Source: Alphaproteobacteria bacterium
GTDB taxonomy: Bacteria; Pseudomonadota; Alphaproteobacteria; SHVP01
Assembly: GCA_038121105.1 (NCBI GenBank)
Contig: JAYONB010000007.1
Span: 119,365 to 183,364, forward strand
DNA: 64,000 bases
Reading direction: 5' to 3'
Shown here: positions 7,032-12,245 of the stretch, piece by piece
How the letters are laid out: each line of letters begins with the position of its first letter
Position numbering within the stretch: position 1 is the stretch's first letter
Notes under the pieces: generated by a model
Told to the model about the DNA's origin: nothing
Databases searched by the model: none
The model's input: only the letters and a program-made list of their open reading frames with translations
Program-made: the position numbers and the translations under genes

Positions 7032-8462
7032 ATGAGCCAGCCTTCGCCCCAAGAACTCTTTTTTACCCGCACCGGCCTCGACGAAAAGCGTGTCGAAGGC
7101 CTCGTCGGCGAGGCCCTGCACGGCATGGATGACGGCGAGATTTTCCTGGAATACCGCCAGTCCGAGAGCTTTTCCTTCGATGACGGGCGGCTCAAAGCCG
7201 CGGCCTACGACACCGACCAAGGTTTCGGCCTACGCGCGGTTTCCGAAGATTCCACCGGCTACGCCCATGCCGCCGAGCTTTCCGAGGACGCCATCAAACG
7301 CGCCGTCTCCACGGTGCAAGCCGTGCGTGGCGGCAATGTGGGCACCGCCGCGGCAGGTCCTGCGCGCACCAACAACACGCTCTATGTCGACGACAATCCG
7401 CTCAACGAGGTGCCGTTCGAAGACAAGATCAAGCTGATGCAAGACATCGACGCCTATGCCCGCGCCAAAGACCCGCGCGTGCGCCAGGTCTCGGCCTCGC
7501 TCGCCGGATCGTGGCAGGTCGTCCACATGATCCGCGCCGACGGCCACCAGGTCGGCGACATCCGCCCCCTGGTCCGTCTCAACGTCTCGGTCGTGGTCGG
7601 CGACGGCGACCGCCAGGAGACCGGCTCGCACGGCACCGGCGGCCGCACCGGTTACCTCGGCTATATCGATCCCGCGGCTTGGCAAGGCCAAGTCGACGAA
7701 GCCTTGCGCCAGGCCCTGGTCAATCTCGAAAGCATCGATGCGCCCGCCGGTGAGATGACGGTCGTACTCGGCCCCGGCTGGCCCGGCATCTTGTTGCACG
7801 AAGCCATCGGCCATGGCCTCGAGGGCGACTTCAATCGCAAAAAAACCTCCGCCTTCGCCGGCTTGATGGGCGAACAGGTCGCCGCCAAGGGCGTCACCGT
7901 CGTCGACGACGGCACGCTCACGGATCGCCGCGGCTCGCTCACCGTCGATGACGAAGGCACGCCGACCAACCGCACGGTCCTGATCGAAGACGGCATTCTC
8001 ACCGGTTACCTGCACGACCGGCTCAACGCGCGGCTGATGAACATGGCGCCCACCGGCAACGGTCGCCGCCAGTCCTACGCGCACATGCCGATGCCACGCA
8101 TGACCAACACCTACATGCTGTCGGGCGATCGCGATCCCGCGGAAATTCTAAGCGGCGTGAAAAACGGTCTCTATGCGGTGAACTTCGGCGGCGGCCAGGT
8201 CGACATCACCTCGGGCAAGTTCGTCTTTTCCTGCACCGAGGCCTACATGGTCGAAGACGGCAAAGTCGCCGCCCCGGTCAAAGGCGCCACCCTGATCGGC
8301 AACGGTCCCGACGTGCTGACCAAGATCAGCGGCATCGGCACCGACATGGGCCTCGATCCGGGCATCGGCACCTGCGGCAAAAACGGCCAAGGTGTTCCCG
8401 TCGGCGTCGGCCTCCCCACCATCCGCGTCGACGGCCTGACGGTCGGCGGCACCGCGGCCTAG
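7032..8462 (+). CDS. tldD: metalloprotease TldD
   Basis: TldD/PmbA family with the HEAIGHGLEGD motif. The start was chosen at MSQPSP (7032) inside the longer track ORF. Confidence 0.9.
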   Translation: MSQPSPQELFFTRTGLDEKRVEGLVGEALHGMDDGEIFLEYRQSESFSFDDGRLKAAAYDTDQGFGLRAVSEDSTGYAHAAELSEDAIKRAVSTVQAVRGGNVGTAAAGPARTNNTLYVDDNPLNEVPFEDKIKLMQDIDAYARAKDPRVRQVSASLAGSWQVVHMIRADGHQVGDIRPLVRLNVSVVVGDGDRQETGSHGTGGRTGYLGYIDPAAWQGQVDEALRQALVNLESIDAPAGEMTVVLGPGWPGILLHEAIGHGLEGDFNRKKTSAFAGLMGEQVAAKGVTVVDDGTLTDRRGSLTVDDEGTPTNRTVLIEDGILTGYLHDRLNARLMNMAPTGNGRRQSYAHMPMPRMTNTYMLSGDRDPAEILSGVKNGLYAVNFGGGQVDITSGKFVFSCTEAYMVEDGKVAAPVKGATLIGNGPDVLTKISGIGTDMGLDPGIGTCGKNGQGVPVGVGLPTIRVDGLTVGGTAA

Positions 8463-9229
8463 ATCACGCGGACCGATGCCCGCGCAGTGTCGCACTCGGC
8501 GCAGCCCTCGGCGGTGGCGTGCAGAAACAACAACGGATCGTCCTTGAGCGCCGCGCACGCCAACCTCACGACATCGCGTGACCGAAACAATCGCGCCGTC
8601 GCACGGCCGACCGTCCCTTCGTGCTGCAATCCCTCGACACGCAACAAATCGTCGGCCAACGCAAACCGCGCGCAGCACGAATCGTTTTCGCCGTAGTCGA
8701 TCCGCGTCGGCACCCCGTCTTCGAGAACCGTGATGTGATGCGGAATGCGATAGGGCACCCCAGCCTTAAGCTCGGCAAGATGTAAACTGGTGTCGGCATC
8801 ATGCCCGACACCGAGCAACAGCACCTGGCCGCCCAGATCGTGTACCCGACCGACCGCGCTCTCAGGGCCGTGCGGCGGCAGGGTCATCGGCACGTCGACG
8901 ATCTCCTTCGCGCGCGGCCCCACCGCCGCCCAGGCAAAGGGATGATCGCCGCGCCGCGCGTCGGGCCGTCGCCACAACGTCTGCGCCACCACACCGAGAT
9001 CGAGGTCGGCGGGCGTGGTGGCCGGGTCGAACACATGATCGTCGTCCCCGGTCCACGACGGCATCACCACCGTGCCGTCCGGTCCGACCGTCATCAACAA
9101 CGCCTCGATCAGCCCCGCCGGTCCGCCGTCCACCGGCCGTACCGCGCGAAACGAGGTGTGCACCTGCACCACCGCGCCGGTCATCACGCCCAACGCACGA
9201 AGTTGATCGGCGATCGCGCTGGGGGTCAT
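8459..9229 (-). CDS. aminoglycoside N(3)-acetyltransferase family protein (AAC(3)-like, Antibiotic_NAT)
   Basis: Collinear similarity to AAC(3)-IV-type enzymes: VHTSFRAVRP, VMPSWTGDDD, FDPATTP, LHLAELKAGVPY, DYGENDSCCARF. Confidence 0.8.
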   Translation of the reverse strand: MTPSAIADQLRALGVMTGAVVQVHTSFRAVRPVDGGPAGLIEALLMTVGPDGTVVMPSWTGDDDHVFDPATTPADLDLGVVAQTLWRRPDARRGDHPFAWAAVGPRAKEIVDVPMTLPPHGPESAVGRVHDLGGQVLLLGVGHDADTSLHLAELKAGVPYRIPHHITVLEDGVPTRIDYGENDSCCARFALADDLLRVEGLQHEGTVGRATARLFRSRDVVRLACAALKDDPLLFLHATAEGCAECDTARASVRVI

Positions 9230-10002: not shown

Positions 10003-11190
10003 TTAGCGAAACGCTTCCTCGCGCAGTGCCGCGATCACGGCCTCAACAGTCATCGCCTCTTGCACGCCATCGCGGCGGCGCAGTGTGATCTGATCGCCGG
10101 CGGCCTCACGGGCGCCCACCGCGGCCAACAACGGAATGCCGGCGTCGCGCGCATCGACCACCTTGCGCGCCAACCGCTCTGGGCGCACGTCGGGCACCGC
10201 GCGATAGCCCGCCGCCGCCAACCAGTCGACGACGGATTTGGCGTAGGCCACCTGCGCATCCGTGATGCTCGCCACCACGATTTGATCGGGCGCGAGCCAC
10301 AGCGGCAGATTGCCCTCGTGGTGTTCCAGCAACATGCCGATGAACCGCTCGACGCTCCCCAACACCGCATGATGGATCATCACCGGGCGGACCCGACCGC
10401 CCCCGGCATCGACGTAGGCCGCGTCCAGGCGCTCGGGTAGCACCATATCGAGCTGCACCGTCCCGCATTGCCATTCGCGCCCGTGACTGTCGCGTAAGTG
10501 AAAGTCGAGCTTGGGGCCGAAGAACGCGCCCTCGCCCGGATCGACGCGGTAGGCAATTCCGGCGGCTTTGGCCGCGGCCTCGAGCCGCGCCTCGACTGCA
10601 TCCCACGCCGCATCGTCGCCGGCCCGCACCTCGGGCCGCGTCGAAAACGCGACCTGCACATCGTCGAACCCGAAGTCGGCATAGACCTTGTGCAACAGGC
10701 CGCAAAACCGCGCGACCTCGTCCTCGATCTGGTCCTCGGCGCAAAAGATATGCGCATCGTCCTGCACGAAGCTGCGCCCGCGCATCAGGCCCATCAGCGC
10801 CCCGGAGGGTTCGTCGCGATGGTACATACCGAACTCGCTATAGCGGATCGGCAAATCGCTAAACGAACGCACGCGTTTGTTGAACACCTGCACGTGCCCG
10901 GGACAACTCATCGGTTTCAGGGCCCGCGATTGGCCGCCGTCTTCGAACGCAAACATGTTGTCGCCGAACTTTTCCCAATGACCGCTACGCTCCCACAGCT
11001 TTCGGTCCAGCAGCACCGGCGTGCGAATCTCACGAAAGCCGAGCCCGCGCATGCGCGCCCGGATCGTCTCTTCGACGATGCGAAACAGGGCAAAGCCGCG
11101 GGGGTGCCAAAACACCATGCCCGCCGCTTCCTCCTGCTGATGCCAAAGGTCCATGCGGTTGGCGATTGCGCGATGATCGTGGTCGTCCAT
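10003..11190 (-). CDS. threonyl-tRNA synthetase paralog: catalytic core and anticodon-binding domain only, lacking the N-terminal TGS and editing domains
   Basis: The ORF begins exactly at the DHR(K/A)xG catalytic-domain boundary (MDDHDHRAIANRMDLWHQQEEAAGMVFWH...MSCPGHVQVF...GTVQLDMVLPERL...), near-collinear with E. coli ThrRS residues ~240-642. There is no room upstream for N1/N2 domains: 233 bp separate it from the next gene. Confidence 0.8.
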   Translation of the reverse strand: MDDHDHRAIANRMDLWHQQEEAAGMVFWHPRGFALFRIVEETIRARMRGLGFREIRTPVLLDRKLWERSGHWEKFGDNMFAFEDGGQSRALKPMSCPGHVQVFNKRVRSFSDLPIRYSEFGMYHRDEPSGALMGLMRGRSFVQDDAHIFCAEDQIEDEVARFCGLLHKVYADFGFDDVQVAFSTRPEVRAGDDAAWDAVEARLEAAAKAAGIAYRVDPGEGAFFGPKLDFHLRDSHGREWQCGTVQLDMVLPERLDAAYVDAGGGRVRPVMIHHAVLGSVERFIGMLLEHHEGNLPLWLAPDQIVVASITDAQVAYAKSVVDWLAAAGYRAVPDVRPERLARKVVDARDAGIPLLAAVGAREAAGDQITLRRRDGVQEAMTVEAVIAALREEAFR

Positions 11191-11239
11191 GTCGTTTTCT
11201 CCTCATCAAAAAAGCCGGGAGAAGACGGGCACCAGACAC

Positions 11240-11271
11240 AAAAAAGGCCCCGTCCGGATACCGGCGGAGCC
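11240..11271 (-). terminator. candidate attenuator terminator: 11-bp GC stem GGCUCCGCCGG-UAU-CCGGACGGGGCC followed by U6
   Basis: Seen on the minus-strand transcript between the Thr leader ORF and the ThrRS-like start. Alternative pairings with upstream segments are possible. Confidence 0.5.
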
Positions 11272-11294
11272 TGGGGTGGTTATTGATGCTGTAC

Positions 11295-11372
11295 TTAGCG
11301 CACGTCAAAACCCCACGGCCCGCCGCTGCGGGTCGTGGTGGTGGTGTTCAGTGCCTGAAGCATCATCAACAT
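11295..11372 (-). CDS. candidate leader peptide (25 aa) with five consecutive Thr codons
   Basis: ATG at 11372 gives MLMMLQALNTTTTTRSGGPWGFDVR*, with the run ACC ACC ACC ACG ACC. It lies 52 nt downstream of the methyltransferase stop and 105 nt upstream of the ThrRS-like ATG. Confidence 0.5.
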   Translation of the reverse strand: MLMMLQALNTTTTTRSGGPWGFDVR

Positions 11373-11423
11373 GGCGCGGACCCTAAGTCCGGTCGCGAAA
11401 GGGTTCAATGTTCTATTGGTCTG

Positions 11424-12245
11424 CTAGGACAAAAGCGTCCGTTTGACGATGAGCCCCTGCCCCGTGGGGAGCTCCAAAATCCGTTGGCTGCGCGCGGCAA
11501 ACCAGGCCTGGTAGGCATCGAACATGGGCTCGTATTCCGACCGCCCGAAATCGTCCAGCAAGATCACGCCGTTCTCGGGAATGCGATCGTAAAAGAACTC
11601 AAGCGCGGCGATCTCCGCCCCCGCGCAGTTCATATCCAAATGTAGGAACACAACTTTCTCCGGGGCGGTCTCGGTCAAGACGTCCGGTACCGTGCCCGCC
11701 ACGACATGCACGTTAGGCCAAGGCGCAAAGCGCGCCCGCACTTGCGCTTCCAATCCGTCGGCGGAGAACGTCGGCCCCGACAAGCGCATTTCCGTCTCGG
11801 TGGCATAGCGACTGTCCAGTCCTTGGAACGTATCGTAAAGGTAGAAGTCGCGATCCGGCGCGATGGCCGAGCCCAACGTGCCCAGCGCGGTCACCGCATA
11901 AAGCCCTTCGTAAACCCCGCATTCGACCAACGCCCCCTCATGACCCAACGAGGTCGAGATCGCCCAACAATACGTATGCAGCCGCCACAGTTTGTGCAGA
12001 TCTTCGGGTTGTTGGCACGCGTTGCCCGCGACTTCCATGAACGTGCGGTCGCGGGTGAAACCGAGATTGCGTGCAATGGCAATGAGGTTGTCCGCCATAA
12101 AGGTGCGCACACCGTGCTCTCGACACACACGCTGCATGTCGTGCGCGCTTTCGCGGACGCGGCTACGCGCGGTGAGCGGAAGGCCCACCGAATAAAAGCT
12201 CATGGCCTCGTAATCGGGCACCGGGGATTCTGTCATGTGCCGCAC
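11424..12245 (-). CDS. TylF/MycF-like (macrocin O-methyltransferase family) class I SAM-dependent methyltransferase
   Basis: LVECGVYEG and LYDTFQG motifs typical of PF05711-type O-methyltransferases. Confidence 0.65.
   Translation of the reverse strand: MRHMTESPVPDYEAMSFYSVGLPLTARSRVRESAHDMQRVCREHGVRTFMADNLIAIARNLGFTRDRTFMEVAGNACQQPEDLHKLWRLHTYCWAISTSLGHEGALVECGVYEGLYAVTALGTLGSAIAPDRDFYLYDTFQGLDSRYATETEMRLSGPTFSADGLEAQVRARFAPWPNVHVVAGTVPDVLTETAPEKVVFLHLDMNCAGAEIAALEFFYDRIPENGVILLDDFGRSEYEPMFDAYQAWFAARSQRILELPTGQGLIVKRTLLS

Follow-up and report, generated by a model that had tools for sequence, protein, structure and literature searches.

The short thrS locus

The subject of this analysis is a gene for a shortened threonyl-tRNA synthetase (ThrRS), together with the regulatory leader that precedes it. 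Both are located in a 64,000-nucleotide stretch of alphaproteobacterial DNA (hereafter, the window), corresponding to positions 119,365 to 183,364 of contig JAYONB010000007.1 (assembly GCA_038121105.1). The gene, referred to below as the short thrS, lies on the minus strand and is separated from the next gene upstream by a gap of 233 bp (11191-11423), which contains the leader and is devoid of coding remnants. The features of the locus are summarized in Table 1.

Table 1. Features of the short thrS locus (positions within the 64-kb window)
Feature	Position	Strand	Details	Basis
TylF-like methyltransferase gene	11424-12245	-		domain search
Possible promoter	11381-11408	-	TTGAAC-16 nt-TTAGGG, a few bases upstream of the leader ORF	inference, by eye
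Leader peptide open reading frame (ORF)	11295-11372	-	MLMMLQALNTTTTTRSGGPWGFDVR and stop, 25 codons; five consecutive Thr codons at 11331-11345
Antiterminator	11261-11326	-	GCGGCGGGCCGUGGGG (11311-11326) can pair with CCCCAGGCUCCGCCGG (11261-11276)	pairing conservation and sequence
Intrinsic terminator	11237-11271	-	GGCUCCGCCGG-UAU-CCGGACGGGGCC (11246-11271), then UUUUUUGUG (11237-11245) with U6	folding, alignment
Shine-Dalgarno (SD) hairpin	11195-11225	-	anti-SD UCUUCUCC (11218-11225) and SD region GGAGAAAA (11195-11202)	predicted fold
Short thrS (ThrRS catalytic core and anticodon-binding domain)	10003-11190	-	ATG start, 395-aa product	ORF call, domain search, residue mapping, family comparison
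AAC(3)-IV-like acetyltransferase gene	8459-9229	-	398 bits, below the cut-off of 420	NCBIfam AAC_3_IV

Domain content and active site of the short ThrRS

A Pfam search revealed two domains within the predicted protein, tRNA-synt_2b (residues 82-291; E 4e-44) and HGTP_anticodon (residues 303-391; E 2e-12), and no other. The protein scored 442 bits against the NCBIfam thrS model TIGR00418 (cut-off 383.65), and the match covers positions 170-564 of the 565-position profile, with the N-terminal 169 positions missing. In a search of the PDB sequences, residues 4-392 could be aligned without gaps with residues 242-631 of Escherichia coli ThrRS (1qf6), and the protein starts at the same point as the engineered deltaN construct 1evk (E 1e-119). 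The identity with solved structures is approximately 50%. The best PDB matches were bacterial ThrRSs (400-444 bits), while Aeropyrum ThrRS-1 scored only 162 bits; judged by its sequence, the window protein is thus a ThrRS of the bacterial type. The TGS and tRNA_SAD (editing) domains of canonical bacterial ThrRSs were detected in it neither with Pfam nor with NCBIfam, and full-length relatives do carry them (PF02824 and PF07973). Since these domains are missing, the protein has to be regarded as a variant and not as a canonical member of the ThrRS family.

The missing part was not found elsewhere. A tblastn search with eight alphaproteobacterial N-terminal domains gave no match in the 64-kb window (best E 0.09), and the same search detected no ThrRS N-domain or editing-domain gene within 6-10 kb of 10 other short copies. 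A second thrS-like sequence is likewise absent from the window. The identical 395-aa protein, with unchanged gene order, is present in three independent Logan assemblies and its homologs are equally short, so the truncation is real and not an assembly artefact. The third-position G+C content of the gene (0.80) is typical of the window, i.e. its composition is native.

These results agree with an initial annotation made from the nucleotide sequence of the window. It had described a stand-alone ThrRS core plus anticodon-binding domain, without TGS and editing domains and collinear with the E. coli enzyme from about residue 240, and had quoted two motifs (MSCPGHVQVF and GTVQLD), both of which are present. 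It had also considered the upstream gap too small for the N1 and N2 domains, and this gap indeed holds the leader and is empty in the tblastn search. The assembly error that it had named as an alternative is excluded by the three Logan assemblies and the short homologs.

We also performed residue mapping of the window protein and 117 members of the family, using the numbering of E. coli ThrRS. The following residues are invariant in all 117 proteins and in the window protein: (i) the zinc ligands C334, H385 and H511, (ii) R363 of motif 2 and R520 of motif 3, together with E365, R375, F379 and S517, (iii) Q381, D383 (which contacts the threonine hydroxyl), K465, Q479 and Q484, and (iv) E600 and R609 of the anticodon-binding domain. 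T482 is retained in the window protein and in 116 of the 117 relatives. Compared with 76 full-length proteobacterial enzymes, the family is distinguished at five positions only (N333S, I514V, 526L, K577R and H585A), the first of which adjoins the zinc cysteine. Everything in the mapped residues points to an ordinary threonylation site.

Leader peptide and probable attenuator

The initial annotation placed the gene under a Thr-sensing leader. Our comparisons substantiate this view, in that the leader has the conserved features of a Thr-codon attenuator. A Thr-rich upstream ORF (uORF) with 4-9 Thr codons, followed by a terminator in the same layout, was found at all 13 distinct short-thrS loci, which represent both proteobacterial classes. 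In an alignment of 11 sequences, 91.5% of the terminator cells are paired, and two basal pairs show AU to GC compensation. For the antiterminator, whose CCCCAGGCUCCGCCGG strand includes the 5′ arm of the terminator, 92% of the cells are paired, compared with 33-58% when the partner is slid.

A covariance model (designated R1) was built on the 13 short-thrS leaders. These score 87-124 bits with their own model, and the window match (11231-11368) scores 108 bits. There were no R1 matches among 77 full-length thrS loci. A simple motif control gave the same picture: the terminator-core motif is absent from 68 full-length thrS loci, where only three weak Thr-rich uORFs were detected. The single new site found with R1 (99.7 bits) is located upstream of asd in Azospirillum halopraeferens (L094, 8563-8709), and its uORF, MKSMFATTTTTTKTTRCGGPSAGVVR, contains 8 Thr codons. 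No Rfam family matched the window at the gathering thresholds, and none, Thr_leader included, matched the region 11150-11450 at E<=10.

When metagenomes were scanned for the antiterminator/terminator scaffold alone, at least 120 loci (L110-L229) were obtained. At least 46 of them precede a ThrRS gene, and all 46 of these genes encode short forms, aligned from residue 1-2; 44 of the 46 listed thrS loci have 4-8 Thr codons among the 12 in-frame codons before GGCGGG. The scaffold precedes asd at no fewer than 13 loci, several with leaders rich in Thr and Lys, a GNAT gene at 16 or more, and a methyltransferase gene at five or more, the last two groups having 0-3 Thr codons. The codon content of the leader therefore tracks the regulated gene, which is the signature of amino-acid-specific attenuation.

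The Thr- or Thr/Lys-rich leaders of asd, e.g. MKSMFATTTTTTKTTRCGGP and MFSLTLKRTTAKKTAHGG, were observed at loci L116, L129, L153, L174, L175, L187, L189, L215 and L222. They fit the control of a shared enzyme of the Thr/Lys pathway by both amino acids. Leaders that are not Thr-rich (e.g. L130, L135, L155, L158, L163, L157 and L124) carry the scaffold in the form GGCGGG ... GCCCCGCCGG-loop-GGNCGGGGC. Their peptides end in ..T(A/R)SGGPVRDVVR or ..RLGGPAEDVLR, the GGC-GGG codons are always in frame (Gly-Gly), and they precede GNAT genes, S-adenosylmethionine (SAM) methyltransferase genes or, in one case, a dihydrodipicolinate synthase (DHDPS)-family gene. The scaffold may represent a general, uncurated attenuator family, of which the acetyltransferase and methyltransferase versions might sense something other than an amino acid.

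The leader may contain a further element. In the predicted folds of 11 leaders, the SD sequence is paired in all 10 in which it could be located, the pairing being UUCUCC/GGAGAA in the window and CUCCGU/ACGGAG in most relatives. The energy z-scores of this hairpin are weak (0 to -2), i.e. not significantly better than those of shuffled sequence. The predicted structure suggests a second, translational layer of control.

A consensus scan of the leader region of the window found no promoter. Visual inspection of the short-thrS loci identified the sequence TTGAC(A/G/T)-N17-TAnnnT at the same place as the possible window promoter in L004, L006, L008, L087, L088, L091 and L093.

Separate leaders were noticed at the housekeeping thrS of Burkholderiaceae (L106, 2790-2990, strain PAMC 28687; L047, Paraburkholderia denitrificans). 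A tRNA gene and a uORF (MNKMAPRTLTDTTSERR or MTPRTFTETTSERR) are located upstream of these genes, together with a strong terminator, GCGGCCCC...GGGGCCGC-U8. At a locus of Sutterella (L086), the uORF reads LSRNTLRTTTTR. Judging from these sequences, full-length thrS of Betaproteobacteria may also be attenuated by Thr codons.

Distribution and phylogeny of the short ThrRS family

The best 120 database matches of the window protein show 64-98% identity. Nearly all of them are 391-421 aa long (a few partial entries have 308-387 aa) and contain the same two domains; the hosts named among them are Azospirillum halopraeferens, Azospirillum sp. A39, Ferrovibrio, Kiloniellales and Minwuiales. When a plasmid-borne short copy served as the query, the matches additionally included many isolates of Paraburkholderia, Burkholderia and Caballeronia, the Burkholderia cepacia complex, Inquilinus, Acidiphilium sp. 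MT5 and the acidobacterium Edaphobacter albus. In total, the family comprises well over 200 protein clusters (approximately 395-430 aa) in Alphaproteobacteria, Burkholderiaceae and Acidobacteria. The proteins of E. albus (P0382; 4.25-Mb chromosome) and of an Acidobacteriaceae metagenome-assembled genome (MAG) (P0377; 480 aa) are approximately 64% identical to the Burkholderia plasmid copy, a level of sequence similarity that indicates transfer between phyla.

A phylogeny against the housekeeping ThrRSs had been proposed in the initial annotation. In the neighbor-joining tree that we constructed, the short forms constitute a single clade, located outside the full-length ThrRSs of Alpha-, Beta- and Gammaproteobacteria. 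The short copies of Burkholderiaceae nest within this clade, apart from the full-length thrS of Paraburkholderia, which implies lateral transfer. The representatives at 50% identity include further ThrRS-like proteins of approximately 400 aa; from these sequences, truncation of the ThrRS N-terminus may have had more than one origin.

Where testable, the short family is an extra copy that accompanies a full-length thrS, as the initial annotation had supposed for the window gene. Direct evidence comes from Burkholderia sp. PAMC 28687 (GCA_001577465.1), in which a 406-aa short form is encoded by CP014506.1 (1.70 Mb) and a 635-aa full-length ThrRS (TGS, tRNA_SAD, core and anticodon domains) by CP014505.1 (3.26 Mb), within the order relA/spoT-thrS-infC-rpmI-rplT-pheS-pheT. 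A short and full-length pair is also present in the MAG GCA_030155485.1. Other short copies reside in (i) the conjugative 582-kb plasmid pM7012, (ii) 2-Mb replicons of Caballeronia, (iii) a 1.15-Mb replicon of the B. cepacia complex and (iv) a 3.5-Mb replicon of Burkholderia arboris, which is without an N-domain match. The full-length ThrRSs of Burkholderiaceae are almost all 635 aa long and, in complete assemblies, are encoded by the largest replicons (approximately 3.1-4.9 Mb).

The two forms also differ in their surroundings. One flanking family is common to 14 of 20 full-length alphaproteobacterial thrS loci, and a conserved gene of approximately 160 aa, which we take to be infC, lies directly 3′ of thrS there. 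At the short-form loci, no flanking family is common to more than two of 11. It is very likely that the window genome also contains a full-length thrS.

Two further groups of plasmid-borne thrS were considered and rejected as members of the family. The first consists of 566 Klebsiella records of PLSDB, annotated as plasmids, that match thrS; the record inspected (NZ_CP079608.1, L089) is a chromosomal pfkB-thrS-infC-rpmI-rplT-pheMST region, which suggests that chromosomal fragments, mislabelled or chimeric, account for at least some of the 566 entries. The second is the thrS of Acetobacter oryzifermentans plasmid NZ_CP011122.1 (L090), which is full-length and unrelated to the short family. Its neighbors are folE, hisI and genes for a DUF1826 protein and a "transcriptional repressor", and it looks like part of a zinc-starvation (Zur) set of paralogs.

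Neither a family of truncated bacterial ThrRSs nor, for these taxa, a leader-peptide attenuator of thrS was described in the literature searched, and thrS is not discussed in the papers on pM7012. The databases label family members simply as threonine--tRNA ligase, as they do full-length copies. The short family with its leader is best regarded as a variation on known kinds of elements: paralogs of aminoacyl-tRNA synthetases (aaRSs), editing-less ThrRS and leader-peptide attenuation.

The window allele

The window gene was compared with a 98%-identical allele (P0001, L109) from a sister sample, SRR26337526. The two differ by 9 synonymous and 7 non-synonymous substitutions, and all 7 amino acid changes arose in the lineage of the window. 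These include R111S, C123Y, A199V and Y224F, four changes at positions conserved in 114-117 of the 117 relatives; the sister allele has the consensus residues at these codons. The leaders of the two samples differ at 2 of 233 positions.

Substitution Y224F corresponds to Tyr462Phe in E. coli; this position is Tyr in all 117 relatives, and Phe is private to the window strain. In the E. coli enzyme, Tyr462 forms a hydrogen bond with the amino group of the substrate threonine, and obafluorin acylates this residue. The E. coli Y462F variant retains its ATP-hydrolysis activity and withstands obafluorin at concentrations up to 5 uM (PMC9880928), so Y224F need not abolish function. From the substitutions, either a relaxation of selection or selection imposed by an inhibitor could account for the changes in the window allele.

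Genomic context

The short thrS belongs to a short variable region flanked by tldD and gshA, which also contains genes encoding the AAC(3)-IV-like acetyltransferase, a SIMPL protein (between the acetyltransferase gene and the short thrS), the TylF-like methyltransferase, a TPR protein, a YjiS-like protein and a LysR regulator. The wider surroundings, with coxB-coxA-ctaB-ctaG-coxC-DUF983-SURF1, tldD, a gshA-type GCS2 gene, ubiD, cysG, a sulfite reductase gene and pmbA, are those of a core chromosome; a DNA search of the flanking region of the gene against plasmids allowed placement no finer than Alphaproteobacteria. No tRNA genes were detected in the window, and no biosynthetic cluster was found in the window or adjoining any examined copy.

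By its sequence, the acetyltransferase is a relative of apramycin/gentamicin acetyltransferases and not a confirmed resistance determinant. The initial annotation correctly described the AAC(3) and TylF-like neighbors on the minus strand, and derived from them a possible role of the short thrS in resistance or secondary metabolism. This link did not hold: the flanking genes are not shared, the ObaO signature is absent and the setting is that of a core chromosome. A functional unit composed of the AAC(3), TylF-like and SIMPL genes with thrS was rejected, as there is no conserved synteny (at most two of 11 loci). Since the flanking genes differ between the genomes examined, the link with AAC(3) and the TylF-like methyltransferase is incidental.

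Comparison with known systems

In structure, the nearest parallels of the short ThrRS are the deltaN-ThrRS of E. coli, the archaeal ThrRS-cat and yeast MST1. DeltaN-ThrRS (residues 242-642; PDB 1evk, 1evl and many later entries) shares its boundaries and both of its domains with the window protein, and the two can be aligned without gaps. In the work of Dock-Bregeon and colleagues (Cell, 2000), it reportedly charges tRNA(Thr) and does not correct Ser-tRNA(Thr). Purification of E. coli ThrRS 242-642 is routine, and the protein hydrolyzes ATP in activity assays (PMC9880928, PMC11252418). It is, however, a laboratory truncation, whereas the short thrS represents a natural family that is regulated in its own way and is marked by five substitutions specific to it.

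The analogy with crenarchaeal ThrRS-cat, drawn in the initial annotation, stands for the architecture, as both are catalytic proteins without a cis-editing domain. It does not extend further: the crenarchaeal protein is of the archaeal sequence type and, as the one charging enzyme of its genome, works together with ThrRS-ed, whereas the short family is of the bacterial type and coexists with a full-length ThrRS where tested. A free-standing ThrRS-ed-like gene was found neither in the 64-kb window nor within 6-10 kb of 10 other copies.

Yeast mitochondrial MST1 (PDB 3ugq, among the PDB matches) and Mycoplasma ThrRS, whose editing sites are degenerate (PMC9976931), are also natural enzymes without functional cis-editing. 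In contrast to the short ThrRS, which is an extra copy in large genomes of free-living bacteria, both serve reduced genetic systems that have no other ThrRS.

The nearest functional parallel is thrZ of Bacillus subtilis, which follows the same logic of induction by shortage as that proposed for the short thrS. This gene, according to the work of Putzer and colleagues in the 1990s, is said to encode a normally silent second ThrRS that is induced via a T-box by uncharged tRNA(Thr). Unlike the short form, the thrZ product is full-length and has an editing domain, and the sensor is a T-box instead of a leader peptide.

Other second copies of ThrRS with a conditional role are ObaO, BorO and cyanobacterial T2 (10.1101/704981, PMC11252418, PMC4787780). 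ObaO is full-length (residues 241-637 of the Pseudomonas fluorescens protein were used as the core), is encoded within a biosynthetic cluster and confers resistance through Ser463, while its L489M substitution confers none (PMC11252418). The short family differs from it in both respects, having no cluster context and retaining Gly463 in all 117 members (G463S of the ObaO type is absent) and Leu489 in 111. Cyanobacterial T2 is expressed under zinc limitation (PMC4787780); a comparable Zur-type context was seen only for the unrelated Acetobacter plasmid gene.

The leader resembles thrL of thrABC and pheM of pheST in E. coli, the latter encoding a synthetase, in that a uORF with cognate codons is combined with antiterminator and terminator hairpins; pheM is annotated in the inspected Klebsiella record NZ_CP079608.1. 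There is no sequence or Rfam relationship with these leaders, and the short-thrS leader constitutes a distinct module, GGCGGG ... GGCCCCGCCGG-loop-GGACGGGGCC.

Proposed function and alternative explanations

Considering the observed domain content, the conservation of catalytic residues, the paralog status of the family, and the conservation and specificity of the leader, we think it likely that the short thrS encodes an auxiliary, backup ThrRS that is induced by a shortage of Thr-tRNA and works without proofreading in cis. The family would be an old, laterally mobile set of paralogs residing beside the normal full-length thrS, each transcribed from a promoter of its own and controlled by ribosome-mediated attenuation. 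With Thr-tRNA(Thr) in ample supply, the ribosome would pass the five Thr codons, the terminator would form and transcription would stop. When charged tRNA(Thr) is scarce, due to threonine starvation or to inhibition or failure of the housekeeping enzyme, the ribosome would stall at the Thr codons of the leader. The GGCGGG segment would then be free to pair with the 5′ arm of the terminator, which would permit transcription into thrS, and the additional short ThrRS would raise the threonylation capacity. By analogy with the deltaN enzyme of E. coli, the product should charge tRNA(Thr) and should not hydrolyze Ser-tRNA(Thr). Because it has no editing domain, it would be unable to clear Ser-tRNA(Thr) in cis; this might be done in trans, e.g. 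by the full-length enzyme, or the errors might be tolerated.

Several points weigh against this interpretation. The antiterminator is supported by conservation and pairing potential and shows no covariation, its columns being nearly invariant. The direct co-occurrence of short and full-length copies is documented in Burkholderiaceae, and in no alphaproteobacterial host. The apparent Thr uORF and terminator at the housekeeping thrS of Burkholderia blur the regulatory difference between the two copies. It looks counter-intuitive that an editing-less enzyme should be induced under threonine starvation, when mischarging with serine should be worst. The window copy itself may be impaired or altered, to judge from its four substitutions at conserved positions. 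Moreover, the enzymatic activity, the inducing signal, the full-length thrS of the window genome and the fate of mischarged tRNA are parts of the proposal that we infer.

The fourth of these points can also be turned around. Since an editing-less enzyme would be induced at the worst Ser/Thr ratio, there is room for the view that the short ThrRS is a programmed low-fidelity enzyme for regulated mistranslation, with a strain-level variant in which the window allele is a selected inhibitor-insensitive form. If true, a low-fidelity ThrRS would keep ribosomes moving during threonine starvation, tolerating or exploiting the charging of tRNA(Thr) with serine, and the family would provide a dedicated gene for regulated mistranslation. 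We consider this speculative and rather improbable.

The auxiliary function overlaps with that of an inducible resistance or immunity copy, insensitive to an inhibitor of the borrelidin or obafluorin type, and the two differ in what is selected. Second aaRS copies that give resistance, ObaO included, are well known (10.1101/704981, PMC11252418), the family is mobile and partly plasmid-borne, and the attenuator would answer any fall in charging; the window allele even has Phe at the position whose substitution in E. coli leaves an active, obafluorin-insensitive enzyme. On the other hand, Phe occurs in this strain alone, Tyr being retained even in the 98%-identical relative; positions 463 and 489 are conserved, and the residues that the inhibitors can reach are in essence the same as in sensitive enzymes; and no biosynthetic cluster accompanies any copy. 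We therefore regard selection for resistance as rather unlikely.

It is also conceivable, but unlikely, that the family is functional and that the window copy alone is decaying, i.e. under relaxed selection and partly inactivated. The derived state of all seven changes, four of them at highly conserved positions including the active-site Tyr462, and the 7 to 9 proportion of non-synonymous and synonymous differences could be read in this way. However, the ORF is intact, the leader is almost unchanged, an identical allele was obtained in three sequencing runs, the equivalent E. coli variant is active, and a crude ratio of non-synonymous to synonymous substitution rates (dN/dS) is still below 1.

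A non-translational role appears very unlikely. The short protein would in this case provide a biosynthetic or cell-envelope pathway with threonyl-AMP or Thr-tRNA, or serve as a threonine-sensing subunit comparable to HisZ. Truncated aaRS paralogs have commonly acquired new functions, as stated in the introduction to one report (PMC4787780), and the short thrS adjoins asd in A. halopraeferens. This adjacency was seen in one genome only, in which asd has its own copy of the leader, and there is no conserved partner gene. Known repurposed paralogs such as HisZ, EpmA/PoxA, GluQRS and AsnA have lost either catalytic residues or the anticodon-binding domain, whereas both are fully conserved in the short family.

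The weakest alternative, that the short form is the sole ThrRS of its host, either as a housekeeping enzyme without editing or with a separate editing protein as in Crenarchaeota, would be compatible with an attenuator (cf. E. coli pheST), with the native base composition of the gene and with the restriction of direct co-occurrence data to Burkholderiaceae and not the window genome, but it is highly improbable given the coexistence with full-length thrS where testable, the lack of a conserved genomic position of the thrS-infC kind, the location of copies on a conjugative plasmid and secondary replicons, the phylogenetic separation from the housekeeping enzymes of the same classes and the absence of editing-domain genes from the regions searched.

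Significance

Editing is regarded as a fixed part of bacterial ThrRS, and to our knowledge the only natural losses on record are those of organelles, Mollicutes and the split archaeal system. The analysis adds a large, conserved and laterally mobile family of editing-less ThrRSs in free-living soil and water bacteria, each copy with a Thr-codon attenuator. It also bears on annotation practice, as the short and full-length copies are both named threonine--tRNA ligase and are not distinguished. In addition, it reveals an as yet uncurated attenuator scaffold that also occurs, combined with other leader peptides, in front of asd, GNAT and methyltransferase genes. What bacteria gain from a synthetase without proofreading, and how they handle Ser-tRNA(Thr) when it is switched on, are questions that can now be approached by ordinary genetics.

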